Origin: a virus
Virus record (IMG/VR): IMGVR_UViG_3300042465_004839
Span: 1 to 64,000 of that record
Reading direction: 5' to 3' (one strand)
DNA length: 64,000 nucleotides
The position numbers and the translations under genes were made by a program. The notes under the pieces are model-generated. The model was not told the origin of the DNA. It was given only the letters and a program-made list of their open reading frames with translations, and did no database searches. Of the stretch, positions 22,196 to 49,400 are shown piece by piece. Each line of letters begins with the position of its first letter. The stretch's first letter is position 1.

Positions 22196-22270
22196 TTGTC
22201 GGGAGCAAGGAATTGAACCTCATTTTCTACCTCTCGTAGGTAGTGTAATTGCCATTATACGACATCCCAA
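22196..22270 (-). tRNA. Degenerate tRNA-like gene (non-canonical anticodon loop TACGAGA)
   Basis: D-arm GTAT-AATGGCAA-TTAC, anticodon stem CTACC/GGTAG, T-arm TGAGG-TTCAATT-CCTTG; imperfect acceptor stem, no U33. Confidence 0.55.
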
Positions 22271-25471: not shown

Positions 25472-25593
25472 TATATTTGCAGCGTACTAATTGGTATTAT
25501 TGAAGTAGAGAGCAGTAATACCTATTAACTAGGATTAATTAAACAATTAATCAAGCCCTGAACAATTCTCTACTTGTTTGGGGCTTTTATTTT
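25472..25593 (+). promoter_or_regulatory. Promoter + three-hairpin leader with complementary loops and terminator
   Basis: TATATTTG 25472-79; hairpins 25493-25522, 25533-25552, 25553-25586; U-rich tail. Confidence 0.7.
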
Positions 25594-25595
25594 AT

Positions 25596-26057
25596 ATGAA
25601 AAACTTTGATAGTTTTAAAAACGCAATTTCGGTATACCTAAAGTTTAACGATAGATATTGCCTTCAATATTTAGAGCCAATAGGTCATAAAAAAATTTCT
25701 ATTATTTTATCTTTAATTAGAAAAGACAATGAAATTACACAGGAACAATATTATACAGTATGTTCAATGTATAGTCATTTCTATAGTAATTATTTTAAAA
25801 TAAAAAATTTAAATAGTTTAGAACCAAGAAAAATTGCACAGCAGTTTATTAGTAGAAAAAAAATAAGACATTTTATTTTTAAAAGAGATGGTTTTAAGTG
25901 CTTAAAGTGTGGTTCTGAAAATAAATTACAGATTGACCATATATTACCAATAGCAAAAAAAGGAGAAAATAAAATATCAAATTTACAAACACTTTGTATT
26001 TTTTGTAACAGTAAAAAAAGAGATAATTATAAAGACTATAGAAATGGCGGAAAATAA
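25596..26057 (+). CDS. HNH endonuclease (start revised to ATG 25596)
   Basis: RDGFKCLKCG...IDHILP...G.N...NLQTLCIFCNSKK. Confidence 0.85.
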   Translation: MKNFDSFKNAISVYLKFNDRYCLQYLEPIGHKKISIILSLIRKDNEITQEQYYTVCSMYSHFYSNYFKIKNLNSLEPRKIAQQFISRKKIRHFIFKRDGFKCLKCGSENKLQIDHILPIAKKGENKISNLQTLCIFCNSKKRDNYKDYRNGGK

Positions 26058-28094: not shown

Positions 28095-28290
28095 AAACAA
28101 ACAAAAACATGGAAAAAAAAGAATTATTATTAGAAATTGAGTGTAAGTATGGGTTCTATACCTGCGCAAACAAAGTTGAATCATTTTGTGAAACTTGTAA
28201 TGAAGGAGATAATTATGAAGACAATGGGGAATAAAATGAATTTTTTTGATGGTTTATTTTATTATGTGGACAAATTTATTATATTTGCAT

Positions 28291-28746
28291 ATGGAAAAAA
28301 TATTAGAACAATATGATAACAAATATTCAGTTACAACTGAAGGAAAAGTTTTTAGTTTAAAAGGAAACAAAAAAGAATTATTAGGGAAAATATGTAAATC
28401 AGGTTATAGACAAATTCTTATTAACCACAAAGGAATTAGAAAGTATTTTTTAGTTCATAGATTAATATTATCATCTTTTGTTCTTAATCCTTTTAATAAA
28501 AGAACAGTTAATCATAAAGATGGAAATAAATTAAATAATAATGTATCTAATTTAGAATGGAATACAGATTCTGAAAATCAAATTCACGCTATTGAAAAAA
28601 AACTTATTATACATAAAATTGATTACGAAATTGCTGAAAAAATAAGAAATGATGTAGGAAGTCATAGAGAATTAGCAATAAAATACAAATTAGGTAAAAC
28701 ACAAATTGGATATATTAAACAAAATAAAAGATGGAAAATAAAATAA
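28291..28746 (+). CDS. HNH homing endonuclease (start revised to 28291)
   Basis: VHRLI...VNHKDGNKLNNNVSNLEW...EN; TATATTTG at 28280-87. Confidence 0.85.
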   Translation: MEKILEQYDNKYSVTTEGKVFSLKGNKKELLGKICKSGYRQILINHKGIRKYFLVHRLILSSFVLNPFNKRTVNHKDGNKLNNNVSNLEWNTDSENQIHAIEKKLIIHKIDYEIAEKIRNDVGSHRELAIKYKLGKTQIGYIKQNKRWKIK

Positions 28747-30479
28747 ATGTATTGTCTTTGTTCGATGGTTGTTCGTGCGGAAGACAAGCTCTTGAGAGAG
28801 CAGGAATAGAAGTAAATCAGTACTTTGCATCTGAAATTGATAAGTACGCTATTCAAGTTACAATGGCTAACTATCCAGACACAATTCAGTTAGGTAGTGT
28901 AGTAAATGTTGATGGAAAGTCATTACCAAAGATAGAATTGCTACTTGGAGGATCCCCATGCACCAATTTTTCATTTGCAGGTAAACGTAAGGGTATGTCT
29001 ACTAAAGATGAGCAAGAAATATTAACTTTAGAGCATTACTTACAGTTAAAAACTGAAGGATTTGAGTTTGAGGGTCAGTCTTACCTATTTTGGGAGTATA
29101 TGAGGCTACTAAATGAGGTAAAACCTACATACTTTCTTCTTGAAAACGTAGAAATGGGTGAAAAATGGGAAAAAGTACTAAGTAAAGCCATTGGGTACAA
29201 CGGAATTCATATAAATTCTGCATTAGTGTCAGCTCAGAACCGTAAAAGAATCTACTGGACAAATATTGGTATGCAACCTGCTGGATTATTTGGTGATTTA
29301 GAGTCTATTATTCAGCAACCTAAAGATAGGGGTATACTTTTAAAGGATATTTTACAAGATAATCCAAATGCTAAGTACTATATTTCCTCAAAAATGGAGG
29401 AGCATTTAAACTCAAGAGATTCTGTTAAAATAAAAAATGGTGAAGATAAAAGTGGTACAATTACTACAAATGGTGAGGGCAAACAAGGCAATAACTCTAC
29501 ATTTATTTGTCAAGAAGTTGATGAAAAGTATTTTTTAAGTGAAAGTCTAATAAGTAAGCTTCATGTATACAACCAAAGACAGATTGATAACGGCAATGGG
29601 TTTATGGCTAAATTTAGAGATACAAATGTAGTTGAAAAGATGGACTGTATAAAAATTGGTGGTGGGATGAAGGATGACTTAATAGTTCACAACACAATGC
29701 CACGCTCATCAACTACAGGAAAGGGTGGTACTGGTCCGTTAAGTAGAAATGATGGTAAAACATACTGCTTAGACACAAAGAATACCAATGCATTAGAGAT
29801 TGTATGTGGTCAGTTAGGCTACGATAAGCCATTTGAAGAAAACGATAAGGCTCAAGCACTACTACAAAGAGATTACAAGGGTATGAGTAACTACGGAATT
29901 AATGTAGTGGTAAATGCAAATGGGGCTAAAGAACAGGTAGTAGGTAGGAAAGCTCAAGAAGATGGAACTTACAAAAGAGAGTACGAGGTTTCAAATGATG
30001 AAAAGGCTAAAACATTGGAAACAAACAAACAAAAAAACAATGTTGTGATTAGAGAAATAAAACAAATAAGCCAAAACAACAAGTCAAATGGTGGCACTCA
30101 GCCTTACCAACAGGATAGAGTATACGATGTTGATGGCATAAGTCCTGCACTAACAAGTCAACTGCCTAAAGGAAGTTCTATGATTTATTTAAATGAAAAT
30201 CAACAAAAAAAATTTAACCCAAACATAGATTCAGATAAAGCCAATACACTTACACTTGCTATAGGAAGAGCAGGTAGCAGTAGTGAGTATATGGACTCTG
30301 TTTCTAAAATAGCTAATATCACATCAAGAATTAGAAGACTTACCCCAGTAGAGTGTGAAAGATTACAGACAGTTGCAGACAATTATACTGCACACGTTTC
30401 AGATTCTCAGAGGTACAAGATGCTTGGAAATGGTTGGACGATTTCAGTTATAGCCCACATATTTAGTTACATAAAATAA
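28731..30479 (+). CDS. C5 cytosine DNA methyltransferase with expanded variable region
   Basis: LSLFDG (I), GGSPC (IV), ENV (VI), QNRKR (VIII), RRLTPVECERLQ (IX), LGNGW (X). Confidence 0.93.
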   Translation: MENKINVLSLFDGCSCGRQALERAGIEVNQYFASEIDKYAIQVTMANYPDTIQLGSVVNVDGKSLPKIELLLGGSPCTNFSFAGKRKGMSTKDEQEILTLEHYLQLKTEGFEFEGQSYLFWEYMRLLNEVKPTYFLLENVEMGEKWEKVLSKAIGYNGIHINSALVSAQNRKRIYWTNIGMQPAGLFGDLESIIQQPKDRGILLKDILQDNPNAKYYISSKMEEHLNSRDSVKIKNGEDKSGTITTNGEGKQGNNSTFICQEVDEKYFLSESLISKLHVYNQRQIDNGNGFMAKFRDTNVVEKMDCIKIGGGMKDDLIVHNTMPRSSTTGKGGTGPLSRNDGKTYCLDTKNTNALEIVCGQLGYDKPFEENDKAQALLQRDYKGMSNYGINVVVNANGAKEQVVGRKAQEDGTYKREYEVSNDEKAKTLETNKQKNNVVIREIKQISQNNKSNGGTQPYQQDRVYDVDGISPALTSQLPKGSSMIYLNENQQKKFNPNIDSDKANTLTLAIGRAGSSSEYMDSVSKIANITSRIRRLTPVECERLQTVADNYTAHVSDSQRYKMLGNGWTISVIAHIFSYIK

Positions 30480-31369: not shown

Positions 31370-32041
31370 ATGAATAAATACATCACATACTTCAGAGTAA
31401 GTACAAAAGAGCAAGGACAGAGTGGCTTAGGATTAGCTGCCCAAGAACAAATGGTTCTACCCATCACCAACAACGGAATAGTAGTGGCATCATTTACAGA
31501 AGTAGAGTCAGGAAACAAGTCTAACCGTAAAGAGTTAGAAAAGGCTATCAATACCTGTAAACAACATAACGCCATACTCCTCGTAGCAAAACTTGATAGA
31601 CTATCTCGTAACGTACACTTCATTAGTACACTTATGGAAAGTAAAGTACAGTTCAAGTGTGCCGATGCCCCAGAGATGGACTCATTCACCGTACACATAT
31701 TCTCAGCTCTCGCAGAAAGAGAACGTAAAATGATTTCCGACAGAACCAAAGGCGCACTACAAAGCATCAAAAGAATCATTGACAGAGATGGTGAGTACAC
31801 CACTAAAGCAGGTAGAGTAATATCTACTCTCGGTAACGGTCTACTACAAAACAAAGAAACTGCCAAAAAACAAATGGCGTACGTTGCATCCCACAGAGTA
31901 TACCAAAAAAAGTCTAACATAGGTCTTGCCCTCGTACAGTCACTATCACAAAATGGTGTTCCCAAGAAAGATATTAAACAAAAACTTGCCGATAACGGTA
32001 TTAACGTGTCACTACAAACAATATATAAATATGCAAAATAA
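31370..32041 (+). CDS. Serine recombinase (resolvase/invertase family)
   Basis: YFRVSTKEQ (catalytic Ser), ESG, KLDRLSR, AERERKMISDRTK; C-terminal HTH-like; own promoter at 31310-31347. Confidence 0.93.
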   Translation: MNKYITYFRVSTKEQGQSGLGLAAQEQMVLPITNNGIVVASFTEVESGNKSNRKELEKAINTCKQHNAILLVAKLDRLSRNVHFISTLMESKVQFKCADAPEMDSFTVHIFSALAERERKMISDRTKGALQSIKRIIDRDGEYTTKAGRVISTLGNGLLQNKETAKKQMAYVASHRVYQKKSNIGLALVQSLSQNGVPKKDIKQKLADNGINVSLQTIYKYAK

Positions 32042-32222: not shown

Positions 32223-32705
32223 ATGAGCAAACAAACAGCAAAATATATAATACCGCACATGACATTATCCATTGATGGTAGTTTATATAACCACAAAACA
32301 AAAAAATTTAAAAAGTGGACAAAAGATACTAATGGTTATATGAAAACACAAATTTGGGTTGGCGGAAAACCAAAAAACGTACATCAACATAGATTACTTG
32401 CTCAAGAATTTATTAATAACTCAAAAAATAAAAAGCAAGTAAATCATATTAATGGTATTAAGCATGATAATAGAATAGAAAATCTTGAATGGGTTACTCA
32501 ATCTGAAAATGGGTTACATTCATTTGCTAATGGATTGCAAAAAGTTACAAAACCTTGTAAAAAAGTAATTGATACTAGTAATAATAAAATTTATGATAGT
32601 GTAACAGAAGCAGCTAAACATAATGGAATATCAAGAAGTCATTTATCTAATATGCTTACAGGTAAATTTAATAATAAAACAACACTTAAATTATATGGAA
32701 AATAA
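32223..32705 (+). CDS. HNH homing endonuclease with NUMOD1-like tail
   Basis: HRLLA...VNHINGIKHDNRIENLEWVT...YDSVTEAAK. Confidence 0.88.
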   Translation: MSKQTAKYIIPHMTLSIDGSLYNHKTKKFKKWTKDTNGYMKTQIWVGGKPKNVHQHRLLAQEFINNSKNKKQVNHINGIKHDNRIENLEWVTQSENGLHSFANGLQKVTKPCKKVIDTSNNKIYDSVTEAAKHNGISRSHLSNMLTGKFNNKTTLKLYGK

Positions 32706-33512
32706 ATCTATGACAGCAGTTGAATGGTTAGAGCAAGAATTTATTGCCCTACAAAATTATGGAGTAAATGAACTTGGATTATTTGCAAAAGCCAAAGAAA
32801 TGGAAAAGCAACAAATTATTGATGCTTGTAATCAAATAGAAGTAATTGGATTAGACTATGAATTGCCTGGAAAAAAATACTATAACCAAAATTTTAACAA
32901 ATAAATTATGACACCAAAAGAAAAAGCAGAAGAGTTAGTCAGAACGTATTATACTTGGGGAATTAATAAGGAAGGACAAACATTAAGTTGGTTAGAGGCT
33001 AAACAATGTGCATTAATTGCAGTAGAGGAGATATCAAAAGTGGTAAATGATATTTGGATGGATTCTTTTACAACAGGAGAATCTGATAATAAGTTTTATA
33101 ATTATTGGCAAGAAGTTAAAAAAGAAATAGAAAAAATATGAAAGTAGAAGTATTCAAAGACATCCTTAGCAGGATAAGAAAGGCAGACGCAGTTGTTAAC
33201 GTGCTGTACCCAATGGTAGATTTAACTAATGTAACGGACGATTATGTTAGCGTCATAGAGATGATGATGAAGTGTTATTACGGAGAAGACGCAGCAGAAT
33301 GGATTTCTTCTTACCTATACGATTTGAGAAACCATGATAATGCGTGGGCTTGGGATAAGGATGGTAAGGCTATATTAAACAATGAGGATGAGTTGTGGGC
33401 TTATTGCGAAGAACTGAAAATGAGCAAAAAGGATTATGAGCCAGCAGCTCCAATGACAGACGAACAGAGGGCAGAACTAATGGAGGAGATGAAGAAAGCA
33501 TTTTTAAATTAA
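32695..33512 (+). other. Three small hypothetical genes (32695-32904, 32908-33141, 33138-33512)
   Basis: TAVEWL...AKEMEKQQIIDA and MTPKEKAEEL...AKQCALIAVEE...YWQEVKKEIEK types, which recur in Bacteroidota phages (recognised from memory). Confidence 0.6.
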
Positions 33513-33545
33513 AAATATTTAATTAGGAAATTAATTTAGAATACC

Positions 33546-33644
33546 TAATTTTGCTCTTGTGTTTAGGAAATAGTTCTCATAATGCTATTCCTGATTAATT
33601 TGTTTTGTAATAAAATCCTTCAATTAATTTTGAGGGATTTTTTT
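33546..33644 (+). ncRNA. Candidate small RNA, about 90 nt
   Basis: TAATTTTG promoter 33546-53, hairpin AGGAAATAG/CTATTCCT, terminator 33612-33644, no ORF. Confidence 0.5.
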
Positions 33645-33660
33645 ATTTGAAATAAAGTAT

Positions 33661-33771
33661 TATATTTGCCCTGTTATAATGCGTGCGGCATAATAAAGAT
33701 ATTGAAAAATTCTCGTACACTTAGAGAAAATTTCAACTAAGCCTGATAGCCGCACGCTGTTGGGTTTTTTT
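33661..33771 (+). promoter_or_regulatory. Promoter + second three-hairpin leader with complementary loops and terminator
   Basis: TATATTTG 33661-68; hairpins 33674-96, 33702-36, 33739-67; T7. Confidence 0.7.
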
Positions 33772-34140
33772 ATGCCCAAAAATTAAGGTAATAATGGTCG
33801 GCACGAAAAAATGACAGCATTATTATTTAAAGCGATACTGTGAGGTATGTATAAATCGCAATCCCAGCTATAAAAGTAAAGGGAATACATTGGAGAATGG
33901 ACACTTCAAAAGTTGTACTTAAATTTGCAAACCCCATTTGTTTGTGATGCACCAAAGAGGGTTGCGGCTCGGGAAAATAGTCGTAATTTGAATAGTGAGT
34001 AGCCAAAGAGTTTAACACCTCTAAGGCTACCGCTATGCACATGGTAAGGATTGCTCTCAAAAAAATAGTTAGTTATAGTATAGTTTAAGTTAAAAAAAAT
34101 TAATTAGAATCCTTTTAAACAATACTTTACCTTTGAACTT

Positions 34141-34323
34141 ATGGAAAACATAGAAGAATTAAAAAGAACAGCATTAGAAGTAGCTTTAAGAAGCAGAGAG
34201 TTTACTCAATTAGCACTGGAAACAAAAGATGCAATAGAAGAAGCAGACTCATTAGAAACTCTAAAAACTTGGTTTAAAGGTACGGTAAACGAATTAGGAT
34301 TAGACAAATATTTTGGATTTTAG
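34141..34323 (+). CDS. Small hypothetical protein (probably leaderless)
   Basis: TACCTTTG at 34128-35, ATG 5 nt later. Confidence 0.55.
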   Translation: MENIEELKRTALEVALRSREFTQLALETKDAIEEADSLETLKTWFKGTVNELGLDKYFGF

Positions 34324-36510: not shown

Positions 36511-39500
36511 ATGCCAGATAAAATAAAAGAAGCATTTACTGCTATAAACGACAAAGAATTATTTTTAGACGAACAAGACTTTAGGGATAATGTAATGAAA
36601 GACCCAAAAGGAACATTTGAAGCATTAAATAATTATGGTAAAACTAAAGGATTTTTTTTAGATTATGGAGATTTTGAAAGTGCTTTAGATTTAAAAAAAA
36701 AAGAGCCTACAGCACCATCTATACCAAATTTTTCAACAAGTTTGGGAGGGGATATGCAACCTTTGCCAAGTGGTGCAAAAAATATTTCCCAATCACCATT
36801 ACAATCGAATATAAAAACAGAGTTTCCGACATACATTGACCCTACAAAACCTTTAAAAACAAAAGAGGTTATAGATGTAAATGCGGAGAAGAAACCTTTT
36901 GATAGTGAAGTAATAAGAAAAGAAAGAGAGGTAAGATTAGGTACACATAGAGAAAAGATAATGTCTTCTATTGTTAAAGAACCTGACTTATATACTAAAA
37001 AAGCATCTAAGTCACATTATGGAACTATAGCAGTACCAGAAATGCCTAACATTGATAACATATCAAAGGCAATAGATTACTATGCAACAAAATTAGTTAA
37101 ACAAGGTGAATACCTTAGCCCACTTGATAAACAATATTTAGTAAATAGTGTTGCTCAACAAGTAAAACAAAGGAAAAATATTGCAGATGCAGCAGCAAAT
37201 GCAAGTCTTAGAGCAATAAACAGAAAAGAATTACCTGAATACGCTTACACAGGCGTAACTAATGCTAAAGGAGAAGTGTTAGTAAAAGGACTTTTTCAAG
37301 AAGCAAACGAAAAAATAATCAACGAACAAAATAAGGAAGTTGACAATTACAAAATAAATTCTGAAAATTTAACAAAAACAGTAGCAACAGAAGTTGCCCC
37401 AGAAGTAAATGCTTTAAAACTTGATGTTAAAGCCAAAGCAGAAATATTAAATCAAGAGGTAGAAACTGCTTTTAATAAATCATTTAACGAAAAAGACAAA
37501 GCTATGTATGACCAATACAATCAATTGGTTCAAAGTGGGCAAATGACTCCTGATGTAGCAAATAATGCTTTAAAAATAAAAAGAGAAGAATTACAAAAGC
37601 AGACACAAGCAGAGATAAGTGCTGCCTATGCTCCTAAGTTTGATGCATTAAATAAAGAATCTAACTTAAAATCAAAAGACATACAAAGTACATATAACAG
37701 AAACTACTTAGCAAAAGCAAACTTACTAAAAGAAACTACTAACAAAAAACTTCAAGAAATAGCCCAAAAAAATATGGTAAATATGCCTAAAGGGTATATG
37801 GAAAGATGGGCAAAGGATTTTCAAGAAAGTTTAGCTGAAATAGAAAAGAAAAACGTAAATCAAGCTTATTTAGATGCTAAAAGAATGCCAGCAGAGGCAA
37901 GATTAGCAAAAGCAGTTTCTTTTGGGTTTGGTAATGTATTAGGCTCAATAGGAGGGGCTATGTCATTTGCAGGATTAGATGCAAGTGCAGTAAACGATGT
38001 AGTTATTAAAACTACAATGCAAAATGAACTTACAAGTAGTGCGTATTACCGAATTAAAGATGAAGAAGCAAAAGCAAATGGAACTCCACACGCTAATTTT
38101 GTAGAGAAACTTTCTGATCCTTCTTGGTGGTATGATAATATGGGAAGTACCGCACCATTTATGTTAGTAACTATGCCAGTAGGTATAGCATCAGGTTATG
38201 GGGCAGGCTCTATAGCAAAATTATTAGGAGCGAGTAAAAGAGCAACAGCTATTGCAAGTGCAGTAGGTGGTGGTGCAGTAAGTTGGTATGGAGAAAACAC
38301 ATTAGAGGCAGGAAGTGCATTTAACGATGCTATTAATCAAGGGTACTCAGAAAACGATGCATCAGAAATAGCAGCAAGAACATTTAGAAATAACATAATA
38401 ACATTACCTCTAAGTGTATTCCAGCTAATGCCAGTATTTAGTAAATCATTTAAATTTACTAAAGCATTACCGTTAGAAATAATTTCTGGAGGTGTTGAAG
38501 AAGTGTTTCAAGGTTGGTCACAAGCTGAAGCAAATGCAGCAGCAAATGGGTATGATGTAAGTTTATTTGAGTATGCTAAAACCCCACAAGCATTAGAGGA
38601 GGGAACTATTGGAGGTGCGATGCAAGCAGGTATGGCAATGTTTGCATTAAATGAAACTCCAAATATTGACAAACAAATATCTGCATTAATGAGTTCTATA
38701 AGTGTAGGTGGCGAACAGTATGCAAGAGCAGTATTGGATGTAATGAACAAGAATCAAGCCATTACAGATGCTGAATTTAAAGAAGCTAACCTACAAATAG
38801 ACTACATCTTAAATGGTATTGAAAGTGTTCAAAACTTTAATGTAGACGACAATTTAAAGGCAGGATTAGTAGGTAAATTTGCTAAAATAGGCAGAGCAAA
38901 GGCATTAATTACAGATGATGAGAATGACTTGGCAAGTCAAGCTGCAAAAGAAATGATTGCAGAGCAAGAGAAGGATATAAAAGAAATTTTAAAAGGTAAT
39001 ACACCTTTATATTTAGTATTCCAAAAAGGGAATCCAATACCAACTTTAGCAAGTGAAGAGCAGTTTAACACAATACTAAAAGACCCAAAACTAAGAGAGG
39101 AATTTACATTACAAGCAATAAATGATGATGCATTGCAAAGTAAAATAGATGAAACATATAAAACAGGAGTAGTAACAGAAGAAGAAACAATAAATGCAGA
39201 ACAAGAAATTATACCAGCAACTGAAACCCCTGCTGCACCACCTAGCGGTGTTAGTGGTGAGGTACAGGCATCTGGTGATGTAGAAGCAAATATAGCCAAC
39301 AGAAAAAGAAAAGATTTATTCCCTGACAAATCAAGATTTGCTAATGACGTAGGTCAAAGTGGAGAAAACTCTCAAATATCATCATACAAAGAAGTAAATG
39401 GAATTGGATTATCAGAATATTCTAATCCTAAAAATGGTTTAGTAGATGTTATAATGACAGGAACTTCTGATAATGATTATGTTGGATACATAAGAATATA

Positions 39501-42500
39501 CGAAAACGGCAAGCCAACAAATAGATGGACATCTAAAATGTCAAACAAATCTGGCAATAAAGGCAACTTTAAAACCATGATAACAGAAGCTCAAAAATTA
39601 CTTCCAGAGGGTCACGAATATACTGAAACTACAAATATATCTTTAGATGGTTTAAGGGTTTATGCTAACAGTTTAAGCAGAGATTATGAAATAGCTACTG
39701 ATGAAGATGGAAAACCTATAACAAATAATGTTGAATTAAATAATGCAACATTAGCAGCACTACAAGGCGCAAAAAATCAACAAGAAACTGAAGATTTGTT
39801 TGACACTAAACGAGGAATTACAAGAGATGAATTTAATCAAATAAAAGAGCAAGTAAATAAATTATTGCCAAATACAAGATTATTATTTGACACGGCAAAT
39901 GGAATTGTAACAATACAATTACCTGTACTAAAATCAACTAAAAAACAATTAACAACTAACGAACAACAAAAAGCATCTAAAAAAGTTGCTGAAGTAACTC
40001 CTAAAGAAGGCGACAGCGTTATTATAAAATCACGTTTTGGTCGTGATGAAAAGTTGGTATTTAATAAAGGAGAGTGGAGAGTACAATTTGGTAAAGATGA
40101 ATTTAGTGATATTGGTAAGGCTGCTCAACAAGAAGCTCAAGATGCATTTAATAAAAAGAATGAACCTGTTGCTGAGGTTAAGGAACAAGCACCTGTAGTT
40201 AAGGAACAAGCTCCTAATAGGGCAGAAGGAAATGTTAAAGTAAAATCTTTTAAACAAGGAGATGGCGGAACAAAAGGAGTTTTTGAAGGAGAAGATGGTA
40301 AACTTTATAAATCTATTGAGCCACAAGAATCAGTTCAAGACAAAGAAGGAAACTTTAAGCGTCAAACCATTAAAGATACACTAACAGACGAGCATAAAAT
40401 ATTGTCTGAACTTCAAGATAACCCTCATGTACCTAAAGTAGGTAAAATTGTAGATACTACGGAAGGCAAAGCTTTTGAAATAGAAAAATTAGATGAAGTT
40501 GATACTTTTACTAAAGATGAGTATAGGGAAATTCAAAAAATACTAAATGACTTAAACGACAAAGGTTATCATGTAGGAGATAGAGTTACTGTTATGAAAC
40601 GCCCAAAAACAGGCGAACTTGTTATTATTGATTTTTCTGCTGGGTACAAAGGAAGTAGAATGTCAAGAGATGCCGATGAATATATGGGTGACGTAGCAAA
40701 GAAACTAAGTAAATCTGATGCTATAAATATTAAATTAGAAGACTTGTCAGAAATAAATAGAGAACAAGCAGATGCTTTTTTTGACAAAGAATCAACTACT
40801 GAATACTACTTAACACAAAGACCTCCAAGCATAGGAACACACCCAACAGAAGGATTATTATCGGTTAACGAAGCAGAATATAGAAACAGAAAAAATGTTT
40901 ATATACTTAAATATGATAGAAAACTTACACCAAACGAAATAGCTAACTTTGAACTAACTCCTAAAGTAACAAATAAAGAATTTTTAGGTCAAAAAATATT
41001 AGGTGTATATGGTAAAGTTCCATTTTATGTAACTAAAATAGATTACAAAAATGGAACTGTAAAAATGGCTGCGGAGGTAGTTGGAAAAGAAGTAGAAAAA
41101 GAAATTTCTTTTAGGGAGTTTAGTAAAAATATAGACGAAGGTAAATATAAAGTAGAAACACCCAAAGAAGAAAAACCTGTTAAGGAACAAAAAGAGCCTG
41201 TTAAGGAACAAACTGAAAAAGAAAAGGCTAAAGAAAAGGCTAAGGAAGAATTAAGAGCAAGAGCAGCAAAAGCTAAAGCTGAGGCTATTAGTGCTGCACA
41301 AAAAGTTCAACAAGCATTAGAGGCAACAGGAATAACTGTTGAAGTAGTTGATAGTGAGCAAGAGTTCCAAGATAAATTAGATGCTGAGGGTGTTAATAGA
41401 GCAAGTTCAGCAGGTAAAAGCGGTGTATTTATATCTAAGTCAGGTAAAATATTTATTAACGGTAGCAAGGTTGATGCTAACTGGGGTAGTGTAGATGTAT
41501 GGCACGAAGGAACTCACCCTATTATTAACATAATAAGGAACACAAACCCTAAACTATACAATTCAATAATAGATGGACTAAATAAATTAGTTACAAGTAA
41601 TCCAGAGATTGCTGATGTTTTAAAGTGGGCGCAAAAAAATTATAAAGGCAAAAACACTTTAGAGGATGAAACTATAACTGAAACCATAGCAAGAATAGCA
41701 AATGGCAATATAGATATATCAAAGATACCTACATCATTAAGAGATAAGATAATAGATTTCATTAATGAGATTGCTAAGTCATTAGGAATAAAACCTATGT
41801 TCAAAAGTTCTAATGTTGCAACATTTAAAAAGATAGCAGGCGAAATATCTGCTGCACTTAAAGAAGGTAAAGATATTAGTAGTATAGTAGGTGCAGAAAA
41901 TGTTAAGAATTATGAGTCAAAAATAACAATAGAAGACTCAGAGTCTTATGTTAAAAAAGCAAATGAATCAGAAACATCAGAAGGTATTAATAATGAAAAT
42001 ATATCTATTAGCGATATAAGCGGTAACTCTAGAAAAGGCATTCAGTTTTCAAAAGGCAAGGAAAGAACCGAAGAGAAAGCTAAAGAAACAGTTGAAGATA
42101 AAATCAAGGCAGAAACAATAAAAGCAGTAAAAAAATCTATATTAGACTACAAAAGTTTAAAAGGTAAAATATCAAGAACACTATTTTATGATAACACAAG
42201 GGTTGGTTCTTTAGAAATAAAAAACAGAATTACAGGATACACTCCACCTGTTATGGGTAAGGGTGGCTTCTTTTATTCTTATATGCCTAGTTCTTTAAAA
42301 AATAAAGCAGTATTAGCATTTACAAGTATTAACCAAGCCATACAAACCTTAAAGAGGCAAATGCTATACCCTGATGGGTTACAGGCTATTGCTGCTCAAA
42401 ATTTTCAAACTGCACATCTTGGGAATAAGTCTACCTTAGAAGCATTGTTTGGGAAAAGTGGTTCTGAAAATTTAGGCATATTTCAAGACTCTGTAAAAGA

Positions 42501-45500
42501 TGTAAAAAACAATCCGAATGGGGAAGCTGAGTTGCTAGAAACATTGAAAAAAGCAACAATAGATATTGCCAATCAAAAAGTGCAGTCAGGAGTTAATGAA
42601 GGCAAGCCAACGGCATCAGCAGAAGAGATAAAAAAAATAATAGAAAGAAATGGAGGAAATTTAGATGGTATAAAATCACTTGATGATTATAGGGATAAAG
42701 TTTTGACATTTACAGGAGGTGACTCATTTGGAGCAAGAAATATATTATTTACTGAAGTACTTCAAGAAAAACCAACAAAAATAACTAAATCCACAAGGGA
42801 ATCTCACCAAATAATACATTATAAGTATGGCATTCCTACCTTATCTGAAATAGCCGAAGGTAATAATCAAAGTGAACTAAATAATGCCGAAACAGGAGAT
42901 GTTGTTAAATTTGTAAAGCCATACACAGACCCTGTTGTATACACTACTGACAAAAAAATATATAAACAATACTCTGAAAATCCAACGCCTGAAATGGTTG
43001 AGAATGGCATTAAAATAAAGTTATTGCCTAAAGATGCTGCACACGAATCTTATGCTTTTGTTTTAAAAGGTGAAAACGTAGGTTTGTTAGACAACTACAT
43101 TTCAGCCACTCAGTTATATGAAAAAAATGAAAAAATAGCCAACACCCCTAAAAAGCAAAGTTTTTATAAAGTGGGAAGGATGCCTGCAAATGCAGAGGCT
43201 GGAGTGTATCCAGAAAACCCCATTGCTCAGGGAAAGGCTCAATACTCACAAGGGAACAGAGATGCTGTTGCAAATAAGAATACAGAAAAAAATAATATTA
43301 TAATAAAAGATAATAACATAGAGGGCAAACTTCTTAACAATCAAGAGTCACAAAAATTACAAAAAGAAATTGAATCTAAATATAATGACTCAGGAATACA
43401 AAAATTTGGACAAGAAAATGAAGATATACGTCAGAATTTATATAACTATGATAACCCATTAGCAGAAAAAGATGTAAATGGGATTAATATAAGAATTGCA
43501 GAGGGATTATTAGAGGGAGATAAATATTCTGGAAACAGGAAAAAAACTTATTTGTTATATGCAGATGGTAAGATAGCAGGTAAATTCTATTCTGTAGCAG
43601 ATGCAAAAAAAGTTGTAAGTTTTATTGAGCAAAACTTAATAAAACCAAAATCATTAGCACCAAGTAATCCTCAATACTCTCAAGGTAACAGAGATGCTGT
43701 TGCTAATGAAAACTTAATAAATGGATTCTATTCACCATTAGAGAAAACAATTAACGATTCTAAGCAAGATAAGATGCCTGCTAAACAATGGATAGAAAAG
43801 TTTGCTAAAGGTGAAGAAGCTAAATGGACAGGACTAACTGATTGGTTAAGCTCTCAAACAGGCTCGGTATCTAAAGCAGATATTCAGCAATACTTAAAGG
43901 ACAATAGAATAGAAATTGAGGAAAAAGTTAAAGGAAGTTCTGATTGGATTAAAGAAGGTAAATCATATTTTTCACAAAATAAAAAATATGAAATAAGAGA
44001 TTTAGGTGATAATGAATATACAGTAATTAAAGATGGCAGATATAATTTAGGTAGTCGTGATGGTCTTGAAAGGGCTAAAGAACTTGCATTTGAAGATGGA
44101 TATTCAAATGAAGAAGATATAAATAATGACACTAACTTTGGCAACCGACCTGATTTACAATTAGAAGGAGAGAAAGAAAATTACAAAGAGATATTGGTGA
44201 CGTTGCCAAATAAAGAAGCAATAAAAGAATCTGAAATTGAAGAAAAAAGACGAAAAGCTGGAATTATGGATAATTTTAACTTTGAAACAATGGGTTATAA
44301 TGATACTCGAAATGTTCCAAAGTTTGTATCATCTCACTTTGATGAACCCAACATACTCGTTCATTTAAGGATGAATACTCGTATAGATTCAAATGGTAAT
44401 AAAGTATTGTTAATTGAAGAAGCACAAAGCGATTGGGGTCAAACAGGGAAAAAGAAAGGGTTTAAACCAACTTTTGAAATTAGAAACGAAAAAGGTATGT
44501 TCAATGTTTATTCTTCTGTAAACAATATGAAAGAACCTGCATTTTCTTTTGATACAAAGGAAGATGCAAATAAAATGCTTGAAACTTTAAATAAAACAAA
44601 TGAAAGTAAAGTTCCAACTGCACCATTTGTAATGGACACAAATGCATGGGCTAAACTTGGTTTAAAGGTAGCATTAAAAGAAGCAGTTGCACAAGGAGTT
44701 GATAAGATTGCTTGGACTACTGGAGAGCAACAAAATGATAGGTATGATTTAAGCAAACAAGTTGATGAAATCAATTACAGTAAAAATTCAGATGGAACTT
44801 ATGATGTATCCGCCAACAAAAATGACAACCAAGTATTTGACAAGTCTTACATAAAAGAAAATGAATTAGAGGGAATAGTAGGCAAAGAAGTTGCTCAAAG
44901 AATAATAAACAATGAGGGTAAAGAACCGGTAAGGGGTAGTGGTAATTATAAAAAATCATTAAGTGGTGATGGATTAAAAGTTGGCGGTAAAGGAATGAAA
45001 GGCTTTTACGGATCACCAACAGAAGGTAAATTAGGTATAGTAGGTGAGGTTGCTAAGAGTTTGTTTAAGCAAGAACCGAAAACGGTAAGTATAGAAGGAA
45101 TATTAAGTTTTAATGTTTACGATAATAAAGATGGGAATTTGCAAGGTAATTTTGCCGACTTTAATTCTGCAAAAGAATTTGCAAAAAAAATAGATGGTAG
45201 TGTTCAAAAAACAAATATTTCAACTCAAAATTCAATAGACATAACACCAGAGTTAAAAGCACAAGTTGAAGAAGGTCTGCCTCAATTCTCGCAAGGGAGT
45301 AGAGATATACAATCTCTTGTAGATATAATTACAGAAACTCAAGAAAAAGGACAATTAGATGATAATGAAATAGCAGAAACTTTAGAAGCTTCTTACTCTA
45401 AAGAAGAAATTCAAGAAGCATTTGATTATATCAATAACCCACCTATAAATGAGCCTACTGCAACAGAAACTGTAGAACCATCTAAAGTTGAATCTGAAAA

Positions 45501-45750
45501 AGTAGTTAATTCATTAAACACAGCAGAAGTAGAGGCGGTAGCAAAAGCTTTAGCAAAGGAAGAAAAGAAAGGATTTGATAAAACCAATAATACCGAAAGG
45601 AATAATGCAAGGAATAAAGAAGCAGAAAAGGAATTAAAGGATTTGGAAAATGCTGCTACCGTACTTGCTATAACTCAAAATATAAATGAGATTAGAGCAA
45701 AATTACTCGAAAATGGTAACATAAAAACTATTGACTGTAAATGGGGATAA
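36511..45750 (+). CDS. Giant polyvalent ejection protein
   Basis: Coiled coil + Gly/Ala hydrophobic region, followed by GNAT-like, kinase-like, DarA_C-like, zincin HEGTH and EEAQSDW domains. Confidence 0.75.
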   Translation: MPDKIKEAFTAINDKELFLDEQDFRDNVMKDPKGTFEALNNYGKTKGFFLDYGDFESALDLKKKEPTAPSIPNFSTSLGGDMQPLPSGAKNISQSPLQSNIKTEFPTYIDPTKPLKTKEVIDVNAEKKPFDSEVIRKEREVRLGTHREKIMSSIVKEPDLYTKKASKSHYGTIAVPEMPNIDNISKAIDYYATKLVKQGEYLSPLDKQYLVNSVAQQVKQRKNIADAAANASLRAINRKELPEYAYTGVTNAKGEVLVKGLFQEANEKIINEQNKEVDNYKINSENLTKTVATEVAPEVNALKLDVKAKAEILNQEVETAFNKSFNEKDKAMYDQYNQLVQSGQMTPDVANNALKIKREELQKQTQAEISAAYAPKFDALNKESNLKSKDIQSTYNRNYLAKANLLKETTNKKLQEIAQKNMVNMPKGYMERWAKDFQESLAEIEKKNVNQAYLDAKRMPAEARLAKAVSFGFGNVLGSIGGAMSFAGLDASAVNDVVIKTTMQNELTSSAYYRIKDEEAKANGTPHANFVEKLSDPSWWYDNMGSTAPFMLVTMPVGIASGYGAGSIAKLLGASKRATAIASAVGGGAVSWYGENTLEAGSAFNDAINQGYSENDASEIAARTFRNNIITLPLSVFQLMPVFSKSFKFTKALPLEIISGGVEEVFQGWSQAEANAAANGYDVSLFEYAKTPQALEEGTIGGAMQAGMAMFALNETPNIDKQISALMSSISVGGEQYARAVLDVMNKNQAITDAEFKEANLQIDYILNGIESVQNFNVDDNLKAGLVGKFAKIGRAKALITDDENDLASQAAKEMIAEQEKDIKEILKGNTPLYLVFQKGNPIPTLASEEQFNTILKDPKLREEFTLQAINDDALQSKIDETYKTGVVTEEETINAEQEIIPATETPAAPPSGVSGEVQASGDVEANIANRKRKDLFPDKSRFANDVGQSGENSQISSYKEVNGIGLSEYSNPKNGLVDVIMTGTSDNDYVGYIRIYENGKPTNRWTSKMSNKSGNKGNFKTMITEAQKLLPEGHEYTETTNISLDGLRVYANSLSRDYEIATDEDGKPITNNVELNNATLAALQGAKNQQETEDLFDTKRGITRDEFNQIKEQVNKLLPNTRLLFDTANGIVTIQLPVLKSTKKQLTTNEQQKASKKVAEVTPKEGDSVIIKSRFGRDEKLVFNKGEWRVQFGKDEFSDIGKAAQQEAQDAFNKKNEPVAEVKEQAPVVKEQAPNRAEGNVKVKSFKQGDGGTKGVFEGEDGKLYKSIEPQESVQDKEGNFKRQTIKDTLTDEHKILSELQDNPHVPKVGKIVDTTEGKAFEIEKLDEVDTFTKDEYREIQKILNDLNDKGYHVGDRVTVMKRPKTGELVIIDFSAGYKGSRMSRDADEYMGDVAKKLSKSDAINIKLEDLSEINREQADAFFDKESTTEYYLTQRPPSIGTHPTEGLLSVNEAEYRNRKNVYILKYDRKLTPNEIANFELTPKVTNKEFLGQKILGVYGKVPFYVTKIDYKNGTVKMAAEVVGKEVEKEISFREFSKNIDEGKYKVETPKEEKPVKEQKEPVKEQTEKEKAKEKAKEELRARAAKAKAEAISAAQKVQQALEATGITVEVVDSEQEFQDKLDAEGVNRASSAGKSGVFISKSGKIFINGSKVDANWGSVDVWHEGTHPIINIIRNTNPKLYNSIIDGLNKLVTSNPEIADVLKWAQKNYKGKNTLEDETITETIARIANGNIDISKIPTSLRDKIIDFINEIAKSLGIKPMFKSSNVATFKKIAGEISAALKEGKDISSIVGAENVKNYESKITIEDSESYVKKANESETSEGINNENISISDISGNSRKGIQFSKGKERTEEKAKETVEDKIKAETIKAVKKSILDYKSLKGKISRTLFYDNTRVGSLEIKNRITGYTPPVMGKGGFFYSYMPSSLKNKAVLAFTSINQAIQTLKRQMLYPDGLQAIAAQNFQTAHLGNKSTLEALFGKSGSENLGIFQDSVKDVKNNPNGEAELLETLKKATIDIANQKVQSGVNEGKPTASAEEIKKIIERNGGNLDGIKSLDDYRDKVLTFTGGDSFGARNILFTEVLQEKPTKITKSTRESHQIIHYKYGIPTLSEIAEGNNQSELNNAETGDVVKFVKPYTDPVVYTTDKKIYKQYSENPTPEMVENGIKIKLLPKDAAHESYAFVLKGENVGLLDNYISATQLYEKNEKIANTPKKQSFYKVGRMPANAEAGVYPENPIAQGKAQYSQGNRDAVANKNTEKNNIIIKDNNIEGKLLNNQESQKLQKEIESKYNDSGIQKFGQENEDIRQNLYNYDNPLAEKDVNGINIRIAEGLLEGDKYSGNRKKTYLLYADGKIAGKFYSVADAKKVVSFIEQNLIKPKSLAPSNPQYSQGNRDAVANENLINGFYSPLEKTINDSKQDKMPAKQWIEKFAKGEEAKWTGLTDWLSSQTGSVSKADIQQYLKDNRIEIEEKVKGSSDWIKEGKSYFSQNKKYEIRDLGDNEYTVIKDGRYNLGSRDGLERAKELAFEDGYSNEEDINNDTNFGNRPDLQLEGEKENYKEILVTLPNKEAIKESEIEEKRRKAGIMDNFNFETMGYNDTRNVPKFVSSHFDEPNILVHLRMNTRIDSNGNKVLLIEEAQSDWGQTGKKKGFKPTFEIRNEKGMFNVYSSVNNMKEPAFSFDTKEDANKMLETLNKTNESKVPTAPFVMDTNAWAKLGLKVALKEAVAQGVDKIAWTTGEQQNDRYDLSKQVDEINYSKNSDGTYDVSANKNDNQVFDKSYIKENELEGIVGKEVAQRIINNEGKEPVRGSGNYKKSLSGDGLKVGGKGMKGFYGSPTEGKLGIVGEVAKSLFKQEPKTVSIEGILSFNVYDNKDGNLQGNFADFNSAKEFAKKIDGSVQKTNISTQNSIDITPELKAQVEEGLPQFSQGSRDIQSLVDIITETQEKGQLDDNEIAETLEASYSKEEIQEAFDYINNPPINEPTATETVEPSKVESEKVVNSLNTAEVEAVAKALAKEEKKGFDKTNNTERNNARNKEAEKELKDLENAATVLAITQNINEIRAKLLENGNIKTIDCKWG
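43238..43707 (+). repeat. 38-bp in-frame direct repeat pair (QYSQGNRDAVAN)
   Basis: 43238-43275 vs 43670-43707, 35/38 identical; third partial copy at 45281-45306. Confidence 0.9.
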
Positions 45751-46309: not shown

Positions 46310-46356
46310 GCTCACCATGCCTCTCAACGATGCACACTTTGGTGGGCTTTTTTTTT
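46310..46356 (+). terminator. Intrinsic terminator after ferritin
   Basis: GCTCACCA/TGGTGGGC stem with a large structured loop, T9. Confidence 0.75.
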
Positions 46357-46403: not shown

Positions 46404-49400
46404 ATGGCTTGTAATATAAATTATACCCCTATTGGGAAGACAGAACCTATAAAACTTACTGAAGCAGAGTTTATTGTATACCTTGCAACGCCAGATGAGA
46501 ATGGAGAAACAGAGTATCAACGACTACTTGATGCAGGAATAGATTTACCTAAAATAACCCAACCAAAAGCAACTAAAAAAGAAGCTGAACCTGTTCAAGA
46601 AGGCGAGAAGAGAGAAAAGTCTGTACTAAATAAATTTATGAATAGTACAGCAGGATCTAAGTTTAAGAAAGACATAGAAACTTTAGGTTTAGAGTATGTA
46701 ATAAAAGACCAAGCAGCAGCAAACGAGTACGCCCAGTACCTTTATAATAACTTAGGTTTTGCAGAAGCATTAAGAGAGGCTACTTACAATGATGTTAAAA
46801 CATTAGTATTTGGGGCAGCAATAGATGACTTATCAAAGAAAATAGAAACAGCAACAGGAAAAGAGTTAGCAGACTTAGAGGCAGAACGCAAGAAGGTAGT
46901 AAATGAGTTTGATGAGTTTGCAAGAGATTTAGGTAGAGGAGTAGCAGCAATAGGCTACTGGTATCTAAACAATGCATCGGCAATTGAGTTTATGCTAAAA
47001 AGACAGATAGAGAATCAAGCTAAAGAAATACTATCACCAAAAGGACAAAAAGCAAACGAAACATTACAACACAAGTTAGACCAAGTAAGTAAAGAGTTAG
47101 CAGATTTAAAAGCAAGTGCAAGTAGTGAGGCAGCAGCAAGGGCAGCAGCAAAAGCAGAGAAAGAGGCAGGTATAAGTATAGAGAAAGAGTTAGCTAAAAA
47201 GGATGGTATTGGTAAAAATGCTACTGAGGCTAAGAAAAAGCAAGTAAGAGATTTTATGAGTAAGTTTTTGGTTGATGAATCAAAACCTTTAAGTAATAAA
47301 ACCTTTTCAACAATACTTCCTGTCAATGTTATAATTGACCCTAAAAAGTATAATAAGTTTATAGAGTTTCTTACAAAGCGACTTGAGGATGGAGTTGATA
47401 TTCAAATGGCAATATCACAAGCATCAACAGATATGTTACTCTTTGCAAAAAGTAAGGAAATAAAAGATATTGTAAATCTTTTTAATAAAAAAAGAAAAGA
47501 GTCAACTAACGAAAAACCTAAATCAGAACTACAGGAACAAAGAGAAGCTGCTAAAAAAGCATTTTACGATATAGCTAATATGGGCAAGAAAGCTATGCGT
47601 GGAGAGATGACTCCTAAAGAATACAAACAATTTATAGAGGAGTTACTACTATCATCTGATGAGATACAGGCAAAAAGCAAGCAAGACTTTATAGATAAAC
47701 TAACAGCAAAATTAAAGGAGTACGGAATAGAAAATGCAAGTGAGTATGTAAAAATATTTGTTGCTGAAAGAGAGGCTATTATTAATCAGAAAGCACAACA
47801 AATATTAGACAGAACTTTTAAGGGAATAAAAGATAAGTTAAGTGGAACATTTTTCCCAAGCAGAAAGAAAATAGAAACTCAAAGAATAATGGAGGCTATT
47901 ATGTATGGCGCATTACAAAATGAGGACTATGCTAAATTATTCTACGAAAAGTACGGTATAGTAGATGCAAACGACCCACAAGTAGCAGAAAAATTAAAGG
48001 AACTTACAGAAATGTATAAAAATGCTACTACACCATTCTACAAAGAAATGGTATTAGCAAGGGCTGCTGGATACATTGGGTACATAAAAGCTAAAAATAA
48101 AACTTTAGGAGCTTGGTTAAACTATTTCTACAATAATATTTTACTTCATTACGATACTATTTTCAAAATGATAAAGTTTAACGTAACTGCAAAGTTAGGA
48201 GGTACAGCGATGTTAATGGCAAAGAATCCTTACAATGCTATGTATTTTGCAAAAAAGATGTTTACAAGGAGTGGACTAAACTTTAGTAGGTCTTTGGCAA
48301 TGGCAGAAGCAGCTTTTAGAGATAAGGTAAACATGAAGTTTGACTTAAAGGATAACGATGCAATATTAAACTTAAAAGACTATATAGGTAATAAGTTTAA
48401 AAGATTTGTTCAATCTTTTAATAGAATGGCATCAAGAAGTTTAGGAGGCGGTGATGCTTTGTTTAGTTCAGTTGCAGCAGAAGCAAAATTAACTGAACTG
48501 TTATTTAACGAGTTTAGTAAAGAATTAAAGGCTAAAGGTATAAAGTTAAGCAAAAAAGAAACACAGGCTCTTATAAACGATATAATGGGTCACGATGCAG
48601 TAATTATAGATGCTATAAACGAGCAGTCAATAAAAGATGCATTAGCATATTATAATAAGAATAGTTATGAGGAATTAACTGCTGATGAAAAGCATGATGT
48701 AAAATTAAATACATTGTACACCTTGAATAAAAGAATGATTACAAGGGGTGCTGAGTTAGCAACAGAATTTGATTTAGCAAATATTAATGCACAAAGCATA
48801 ATGATGGATAAGGAAAGAGCTGACAAGTGGGCTAAGACATCAGTAATGTACGGTAGACCAGAAGGAACAGTTGGACTTATTGCCGATGTAATAGGAACAG
48901 TAGGGGAAGGATTACAATGGTCAAAACCATTCTTTGCAACTATTATAAATGCACCATTGAATATGCTAAACTTATATATTAACGGATCACCTTTAGGTAT
49001 TGCAAGGTTAGCACTTAACTTATCAAGAAGTAAGAGAGGATTATTCTTGAGTGATGCATACATTAAAAAGCATGGGTTAGAGGCAGGAGTAAACATTACA
49101 CCTGACCAAAAGAAGGAAATGATTATAAGAGTTGCTGCTGCACAGTTGTTAACAATTGGTATTTGTGCTTTACAGGGAGCTTTTGATGATGATGATGATT
49201 TAGAAGAAGAATGGAAAAAAGGTACATGGAGAGATAGAAAATTATATATAACAGCCGACTTGACAGGTGACTACAAAAAGAATGAAACATTAAAGAAGAC
49301 AGCAGGCGGTGCAGGATTAGAGGAGTACTCTGTGTATGCATATGGTCGAAAGGTTTGGGATTATAAAGATGATTTTAGTGGAATATTCTTTTTACAGTCA

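Follow-up and report, generated by a model that had tools for sequence, protein, structure and literature searches.

A candidate kissing-loop attenuator ahead of noncoding DNA in an uncultured phage, and the leader family to which it belongs

Why should a leader that bears a promoter-like box, three tandem hairpins, an intrinsic terminator and a pair of complementary loops stand before DNA that encodes no protein? This question is raised by positions 33661-33786 of the window, i.e., the whole stretch of DNA analyzed here, which comprises the first 64 kb (64,000 nt) of the 73,169-bp single-contig virus record IMGVR_UViG_3300042465_004839 (G+C 32%). The element, hereafter leader 2 or copy 2, is placed in a 628-nt gap (33513-34140) between open reading frames (ORFs) of 124 and 60 amino acids (aa), both on the + strand. 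An original prediction, made from the sequence itself, had described it as the second of two kissing-loop leaders of the same architecture and had proposed a family of orthogonal RNA switches. Leader 2 proves to be a member of an uncatalogued leader family of uncultured phages with Bacteroidota-type promoter boxes, and in the reading that we prefer, at slightly less than even confidence, it is a cis attenuator in which pairing between the two loops pre-empts the terminator.

The promoter, three hairpins, terminator and mini-ORF that had been described at 33661-33786 are all present in the sequence, on the + strand. The leader opens with the −7 promoter box TATATTTG (33661-33668), which fits TAnnTTTG, which we take to be the Bacteroidota −7 consensus; a sigma-70 promoter scan gave nothing convincing at this site. 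The same box also heads copy 1 and the leaders of the related loci L001, L010 and L011, and DNA contigs from lake strains part from the window directly past 33668, at the end of the box. From the position of the box, the transcript is predicted to start at about 33674-33676. The 5' hairpin HP1 (33674-33696), predicted by folding as TTATAATGC[GTGCG]GCATAATAA, is present but weaker than originally described, with 4+4 bp flanking an A.A mismatch, the loop GTGCG and a stability of −5.0 kcal/mol in the prefix fold; another register, with a 12-nt loop, is possible. It is followed by the spacer motif AAAGATATT (33695-33703), common to L092, L093, L088, L241 and L261, and by the middle hairpin HP2 (33702-33736; TTGAAA..TTCTC / GAGAA..TTTCAA), again predicted by folding. 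The intrinsic terminator (33739-33771) consists of a stem-loop at 33739-33767, predicted to have 12 pairs (four of them G-C), a 5-nt loop and a stability of −13.4 kcal/mol, with a run of seven T at 33765-33771, so that the U-tract begins 105 nt on from the start of the box. The four-codon ORF ATG CCC AAA AAT TAA (33772-33786) occupies the place where other leaders start a real gene.

The long-range pairing joins GCGTGCGGC (33681-33689) to GCCGCACGC (33749-33757), the latter taking in the loop of the terminator and the adjoining 2 nt on either arm. The two strands are exact complements over 9 nt, each 9-mer is single-copy in the 73,169-bp genome, and when the leader sequence upstream was shuffled 20,000 times with its dinucleotides preserved, a complement this long to the terminator apex was obtained 3 times, all of which bears out the 9-bp loop pairing that had been claimed. 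The partners are about 60 nt apart within a unit of about 100 nt that ends in its own terminator. Leader 2 thus has the −7 box, the three tandem hairpins and the loop complement of at least 7 nt by which the family was defined operationally; it lacks the gene start about 0-17 nt past the U-tract that completes the definition, the four-codon ORF being all that opens there. A second complementarity is also visible, as the 3' arm of HP1 with the next A's (GGCATAATAAA, 33687-33697) is 91% complementary to the U-tract plus ATGCC (33766-33776); this pairing could cover the start of the mini-ORF in a read-through RNA.

A second copy of the same layout with an unrelated loop pair, as had been predicted, lies at 25472-25595 on the + strand. 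This copy 1 was found by scanning for hairpin pairs with complementary loops before a T-run, and it has the TATATTTG box, HP1 at 25493-25522 (loop AAGTAGAGAG), HP2 at 25533-25552 and a terminator at 25553-25586 (loop TTCTCTAC). Its pairing, AAGTAGAGA / TCTCTACTT, is again 9 nt long, such a pairing is reached in 148 of 20,000 shuffles, and the fold has a z-score of −5.16. Behind it a gene begins with an ATG at 25596. Because copy 1 occupies a divergent intergenic region and heads an 8-kb + strand replication/early block, read-through of its terminator would be needed.

Recurrence of the design was assessed in viral contigs with a generic pattern (box, 60-80 nt, then an AAGCC...GGCTTTTT terminator), which yielded at least 80 loci. 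A perfect loop complement of at least 7 nt was present in the leader of 19 of the 80 viral matches listed, against 1.9 expected from shuffles, and a direct-repeat control gave 3 of the 80; as the loci were chosen by pattern, these counts show enrichment and not prevalence. Inspection by eye suggests that L079, among the 19, is spurious. When a weighted score of at least 18 was required, the figures were 20 of the 80 matches listed versus 1.6 expected. The same pattern applied to cellular genomes (one per prokaryote species) returned such complements in 3 of 81, no more than chance would give, and the three-hairpin layout was seen in none of them; the viral (matches listed) and cellular counts differ with a Fisher p of 1.8e-4. 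The search of this kind that the original prediction had set beforehand, namely whether the pattern is commoner than in shuffled DNA, therefore came out in its favor, with cellular genomes not above chance, and so did its notion of one architecture with many unrelated complementary loop pairs. The first five examples (copy 1, copy 2, L001/L002, L010 and L011) share the promoter box, the three hairpins, the loop complementarity and a start codon 0-12 nt past the U-tract.

A looser scan of all loci collected, in which a promoter box and at least three G/C in the pairing were required, gave 35 viral leaders, some of them duplicates from the same contig, and one cellular leader, in an Ignavibacteriae metagenome-assembled genome. 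The latter (L285, TCCAACGGA pairing) is the sole cellular match with the full layout and may be a prophage. In the viral contig L172, as in the present genome, there are two leaders, and their loop pairs (CCGCCAAG and AGTGGTAG) differ. A further pattern, based on AAGATATT, the sequence that L110 has where the rest of the copy 2 subgroup has the spacer motif AAAGATATT, gave 78 matches parsed in 80 listed loci; 12 of them had a terminator, and 7 of these 12 terminator-bearing matches listed had a complement of at least 7 nt. Other routes were less productive. The HNH protein of L010/L011 used as query led to 21 loci, the nearest of which, L016 and L017, are the contigs of L011 and L010, and no leader was seen by eye in the 16 upstream stretches inspected. 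The related genomes G001, G002, G005 and G004 showed no further convincing leader beyond the cassette site discussed below, and neither blastn of the intergenic region nor tblastn of the 496-aa neighbor found a match in the phage collection. A pattern built from HP1 with a free loop gave three matches in viral contigs, all unrelated by eye, and a hairpin-pair scan run with no promoter filter had a high background (82 of 960 viral versus 29 of 648 cellular terminator-like sites) and was not used as evidence.

Across the family the anatomy is fairly constant. In the 23 leaders with clear kissing hairpins, the median HP1 has 12 bp and an 8-nt loop, the median terminator 11 bp and an 8-nt loop, and the median linker between them is 23 nt, mostly folded as HP2; almost every leader of the family has this middle hairpin. 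The distance from box to U-tract is mostly 97-114 nt. Where an ORF follows, its start is 0-17 nt past the U-tract (in L073, 30 nt), too close for a further promoter to fit in between, and expression of such genes would therefore need read-through. Purines usually dominate the 5' strand of the pairing, which is often Shine-Dalgarno-like (GGAG, AGGAG, GGGAGG), and pyrimidines the terminator-loop strand (CTCC, CCTCC), a trend from which copy 2 departs.

Leader 2 belongs to a subgroup of its own within this family. L092, L093, L110, L241 and L261 resemble it in having a weak or absent HP1 and a G+C-rich pairing of 9-12 bp, and in L092, L093 and L110 an extra helix extends into the 3' arm of the terminator, so that the nested minimum-free-energy (MFE) fold is an antiterminator-like long hairpin. 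The subgroup motif AA(A)GATATT, a single-stranded spacer between HP1 and HP2, is seen in copy 2, L092, L093, L088, L241, L261, L250 and L234. The absence of a gene is also shared, as L092, L110, L093, L241 and L088 have no ORF past the terminator, and about 180-480 nt of noncoding DNA separate it from the next promoter box or ORF.

The genes behind the other leaders point to a common setting. When the first ORFs were compared with PHROGs (n=15), 11 had replication-type matches, these being replisome organiser, DnaD-like loader, replication initiation protein, helicase, primase/helicase and primosomal protein; one of the 11 stands behind the second leader of L092, a doubtful leader. The remaining four comprise two HNH/endonuclease VII proteins (copy 1 and L163) and two with no match. 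Pfam agrees for the ORFs tested (HTH_36, Lin1244_N, HNH). In the block behind copy 1 an HNH nuclease is followed by a DUF6291/phrog_19415 protein with a weak primosomal-protein match; the block also holds a protein with a weak primase/helicase match, a C5 methylase, a resolvase and a further two HNH genes.

The complementarity of the loops is also maintained by compensatory change, which the original prediction had read from the two unrelated copies and which was now found between homologous leaders. Twelve such leaders were aligned, and pairs were counted in a pseudoknot notation that combined HP1 with the kissing helix. In this alignment 95% of the cells are paired, and changes on both sides occur in 8 of 12 HP1 pairs and in 3 of 8 kissing pairs; one matched change is GTGAGAGT/ACTCTCAC versus GTAGGAGT/ACTCCTAC in L148. 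The covariation score of 0.470 compares with 0.167 in shuffles, none of 500 shuffles reached it, and controls with a slid partner scored at most 0.127. The other five of the eight kissing pairs are invariant within this subgroup of 12, although no relation between the pairs is seen over the family as a whole. L010, a homologue of L011, likewise has matched changes in its two strands, the pairing there being GTAAGAGC/GCTCTTAC. The G-U cells of the table fit an RNA of the leader strand, and because the complementarity is limited to the loops and excludes the stems, an inverted duplication is not the explanation. That the pairs are orthogonal switches, as originally labeled, is unproven; drift with compensation is the alternative.

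How might such a pairing act? The transcript would begin a few bases past TATATTTG, and the leader would fold HP1 and HP2 and then meet the intrinsic terminator, the apex of which is complementary to the 5' hairpin loop. The kissing pairing would form once the terminator loop exits the polymerase, ahead of the 3' arm of the terminator, and, the linker being short, it would hinder completion of the terminator stem, thus serving as a built-in pre-emptor or antiterminator. Its occupancy would set the ratio of the terminated leader RNA of about 100 nt to the read-through transcript, which in most members would lead into the first replication-module gene or a free-standing HNH nuclease, and in copy 2 into about 310 nt of noncoding cargo, giving an RNA of about 410 nt. 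The start of the transcript, the direction of the effect (read-through versus reinforcement of the terminator) and whatever modulates it are what we infer. Pairing and terminator would compete at the top of the terminator, because a fully paired 9-nt loop is presumably not closable by its own stem. In copy 2 little separates the energy of the long-range fold (−27.7 kcal/mol) from that of the fold with three hairpins and the terminator (−26.9 kcal/mol), the nested MFE structure takes the long-range helix and not the two local hairpins, and folds of the growing prefix switch to the long-range helix once 33755-33757 have been made, before the terminator 3' arm.

Among the closest counterparts is the guanidine-IV riboswitch (mepA motif). 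In its description, the loop of a 5' hairpin kisses the loop of a hairpin growing into a terminator, as would happen here, the kissing loop hinders the complete terminator stem and so causes read-through, and a short linker makes kissing loop and full stem sterically exclusive (PMC11611296). The short, HP2-filled linkers of the leaders fit this steric logic. In contrast, the kiss of the riboswitch is weak and guanidine-dependent and has conserved loop nucleotides, whereas the leaders have no conserved ligand pocket, because their pairing is made of 7-12 Watson-Crick pairs of freely varying sequence. Moreover, the riboswitch stands before exporters, and the leaders stand before phage replication or HNH genes and have no Rfam match.

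Several points weigh against an attenuator of this kind. In the main class, with two 8-nt loops, the hairpins are stable singly and the nested MFE fold omits the long-range pairing, so that the only ground for competition with the terminator in this class is a rough steric one. In cobalamin riboswitches, the kissing loop is generally said to stabilise the regulatory hairpin, so that the effect could be the opposite one, a reinforced terminator. The viral loci behind the counts were picked by patterns that force box and terminator, the host is uncultured and the phage DNA is present in lake-water metagenomes, and the one RNA-library contig that overlaps the cargo comes from a single study and a 91% relative, has ends that need not be true ends, and may derive from DNA in the library.

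The first of these points leads to another possibility, unlikely in our estimate, in which the pairing locks the terminator into a tight default stop and the downstream genes need an antitermination factor of phage or host, or a small leak. In most members both hairpins are independently stable and the loops are of 8 nt, so that the kiss can coexist with them, and the terminators of several members, with loops as large as 13-21 nt, would be poor folders in the absence of a partner. Cobalamin riboswitches offer a precedent in the intramolecular kiss between an upstream loop (L5) and the loop of the regulatory hairpin (L13), as in the leaders; they differ in their large, conserved, ligand-dependent aptamer, no Rfam match to which is found in the leaders. 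The copy 2 subgroup argues otherwise, as the pairing there takes up the upper part of the terminator stem or, in L092, L093 and L110, bases of the 3' arm, and wins in the nested folds. Furthermore, no antiterminator gene was recognised near either copy, and an RNA contig spans the terminator of a variant, a weak point against a lock.

The steric logic of the short linkers can also be turned toward a role in trans. Once both stems have reached full length, short linkers would disfavor cis pairing, a point taken from the guanidine-IV study (PMC11611296), and the terminated leader of about 100 nt could instead kiss like nascent leaders, block their cis pairing and force termination. We regard this as distinctly unlikely, and no more confidence attaches to its corollary, a dosage- or time-dependent shut-off of the replication genes that would be specific for each loop pair. 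It would suit the position of the leaders before replication initiators, helicase loaders, helicases and primases, the two leaders of one genome with unrelated loops, and the many unrelated pairs in the family. There is also a phage precedent. The CI RNA of phage P4 is released by cleavage from the very leader on which it acts, where seqA and seqC are its complements, and it stops transcription before replication genes, so that, as in the leaders, complementary sequences within one untranslated leader decide premature termination (PMC4825925). The P4 case is unlike the present one in that CI RNA, once excised by processing, has two targets on which it acts in trans, whereas there is one complementary pair per leader here, and the host phylum differs. 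Relatives of the P4 system are c4 of P1/P7, CA of N15 and IsrK, and P1 and P7 are heteroimmune variants with different pairing sequences. Rfam searches with C4 and IsrK gave no match at the gathering score in the window and none at E ≤10 around copy 2.

Elsewhere in the genome the loops of copy 2 have no target and those of copy 1 only short, chance-level matches. Against action in trans, the pairing GTGAGAG/CTCTCAC is common to many different contigs, which argues against a strong pressure for private specificities, and purely cis pairing explains the covariation equally well. An antisense RNA seems no better founded, as a TAnnTTTG box on the opposite strand occurs in 9 of the 35 leaders at scattered, inconsistent positions and in neither copy 1 nor copy 2. 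Plasmid rep attenuators (pT181, pIP501/pAMbeta1) place a terminator directly before the start codon of the initiator and let a loop-loop kiss decide its formation. Their partner is an antisense RNA, unlike in the leaders, where both loops are on the sense RNA and no consistent antisense box is present. The cis and trans roles might even be combined in a sense-RNA timer, to which we give the same low credence, with an early cis kiss that lets the replication module be read and free leaders that later kiss the first hairpin of nascent leaders with the same specificity and force termination. Each termination would free a leader of about 100 nt with two free loops, and expression would fall as genomes and leader RNA accumulate, a chain of events that is just as doubtful. 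Equally speculative is the extension in which unrelated loop pairs would be private specificities, similar to plasmid incompatibility groups, and copy 2 an independently timed RNA gene.

Under the cis attenuator that we prefer, the gene that one would expect behind leader 2 is missing, as had been noted originally. Past its terminator lies a noncoding cargo of about 310 nt (33772-34083, + strand) with no + ORF. All three + frames of 33768-34140 hold TAA, TAG and TGA stops, and because every frame has all three stop codons, recoding is not the answer; no minus-strand ORF is consistent across the copy 2 subgroup. The cargo has no Rfam match at E ≤10, and the loci of four relatives have none at E ≤1. 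Its + strand folds with a z-score of −2.98 (0 of 100 shuffles as good), compared with −1.45 for the − strand. Among the cargoes of the subgroup, the only similar pairs are L092-L110, over 165 nt, and L093-L241, over 27 nt.

In a freshwater RNA library, a 413-nt contig matches 33762-34077 with an identity of about 91%. The match is preceded by 87 unlike bases, which reach to about 33675, the predicted transcript start, and followed by 6; the contig includes a 94-nt block of the cargo with no listed difference, its leader part is less than 80% identical, and the flanking ORFs have no cover in the library. It gives a weak hint of a read-through RNA of about 410 nt in a relative.

These data bear on whether copy 2 is a relic, that is, a leader left idle before a decaying 310-nt cargo after a small gene was destroyed. 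The ATG at 33772 is exactly at the usual place of a gene start and opens only four codons, a search of the phage collection found nothing homologous to the cargo, and two 20-mers from its conserved block had no match in metagenome contigs. Moreover, of the 19 substitutions in the RNA-library relative, only 5 keep a pair of the predicted cargo MFE fold, 8 break one and 6 are unpaired. We nevertheless find a relic very doubtful. At least five leaders of the subgroup (L092, L110, L093, L241, L088) are in the same situation, the cargo has stayed more similar in the relative than the leader has and includes the unchanged block, its + strand folds better than shuffles, and the pairing of copy 2 is intact and GC-rich. 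We leave the cargo as an expressed-looking noncoding stretch, possibly a decayed gene.

The surroundings of leader 2 suggest how it came to stand there. The loci L001-L012, which were reached via neighboring proteins, show that the flanks of the gap (upstream terminator, promoter region and next promoter) are about 84% conserved in L011, L001 and L002 and the interior is not. At the same site, L011 has a leader of the same layout with the pairing GTGAGAG/CTCTCAC and an HNH gene, L001 has such a leader with the pairing AATAGAGTCT/AGACTCTATT and two ORFs, and lake contigs have other sequence. Other lake-strain contigs break from the window at 33611-33648, 33668, 33739-33776 and 34060-34100, stretches with no contig cover being uninformative. 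Direct repeats of 24 nt (33503-33526 and 34084-34107, 88% identical, promoter-like) bracket a small unit, leader 2 and its cargo. The break points, the varied cargo and the flanking repeats therefore indicate a cassette hot spot, with the leader as part of the cassette. The downstream border is the next promoter region (34084-34140, + strand), which precedes the 60-aa ORF (34141) and is conserved in L011. The small unit upstream (33546-33645, + strand) has a TAATTTTG box, a hairpin at 33563-33590 and a strong terminator at 33612-33645, and is about 84% conserved in L011, L001 and L002. It is not a kissing-loop leader, no loop covariation being seen, and it looks like an RNA gene of about 90 nt or the end signal of an operon. 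PeSL, the promoter-stem-loop cassettes or morons of the plastic regions of phages, serve as boundaries for shuffling. The locus 33503-34107 is like them in being bounded by a repeated promoter-like sequence and a terminator and in having a cargo that varies in relatives, and unlike them in that their elements are boundaries for shuffling and not a folded leader with loop-loop pairing.

A hot spot flanked by direct repeats, with a serine recombinase gene 1.6 kb upstream (31370-32041), could also be taken as a sign that the complementary loops act as DNA, e.g., as inverted repeats of a recombinase or an origin, or that they arose by coincidence in AT-rich sequence. We consider this extremely improbable given the rarity of the match among shuffles (3 of 20,000), the enrichment of the family over two controls with cellular genomes not above chance, and the G-U cells and one-strand asymmetry of the covariation table. 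In addition, the loops are complementary and the stems are not, and no iterons were found.

The leaders do not correspond to an element already catalogued in the sources searched. Rfam 15 gave no match at either copy or at 14 other leader loci, none at the gathering score for the leader in the window and none at E ≤10 in 33400-34250, and a literature search of main texts returned no description of such a leader.

The rest of the window holds some further features. The 8-kb block contains three HNH endonuclease genes (25596-26057, 28246-28746 and 32223-32705, + strand), the first of which fills the space that separates leader 1 from the DUF6291 gene, together with a 582-aa C5 cytosine methylase (28731-30479) and the serine recombinase mentioned above, which has a Resolvase N-terminal domain (1.4e-23). 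A match to the abiF RNA (RF03085) occurs at 46311-46347 (+), with 39.9 bits versus a gathering score of 37. It consists of a terminator-like hairpin and T9 just before a 1373-aa ORF (46404-50525) that has no Pfam or PHROG match, and the related phage G001 has, near 33140 (−), an abiF-like hairpin in which the inner loop is unchanged and the stem covaries. A 3079-aa ORF (36511-45750) has DarA_C (defence against restriction) as its only Pfam match, at residues 1431-1484, and may be a giant virion or injected protein. The sole tRNA gene of the window is a tRNA-Ser (anticodon CGA) at 22198-22270 (−).

If the cis attenuator is correct, the leaders would be a widespread, uncatalogued RNA control element of phages with Bacteroidota-like hosts, placed at the entry of the replication module and before selfish nuclease genes. 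They would extend the competition between kissing loop and terminator beyond the guanidine-IV and cobalamin riboswitches to a form that is ligand-free and programmable by sequence, and would provide natural loop pairs that do not cross-react with each other, as candidate transcription parts. The leader would also mark the start of early or replication transcription units in poorly annotated, uncultured phages.

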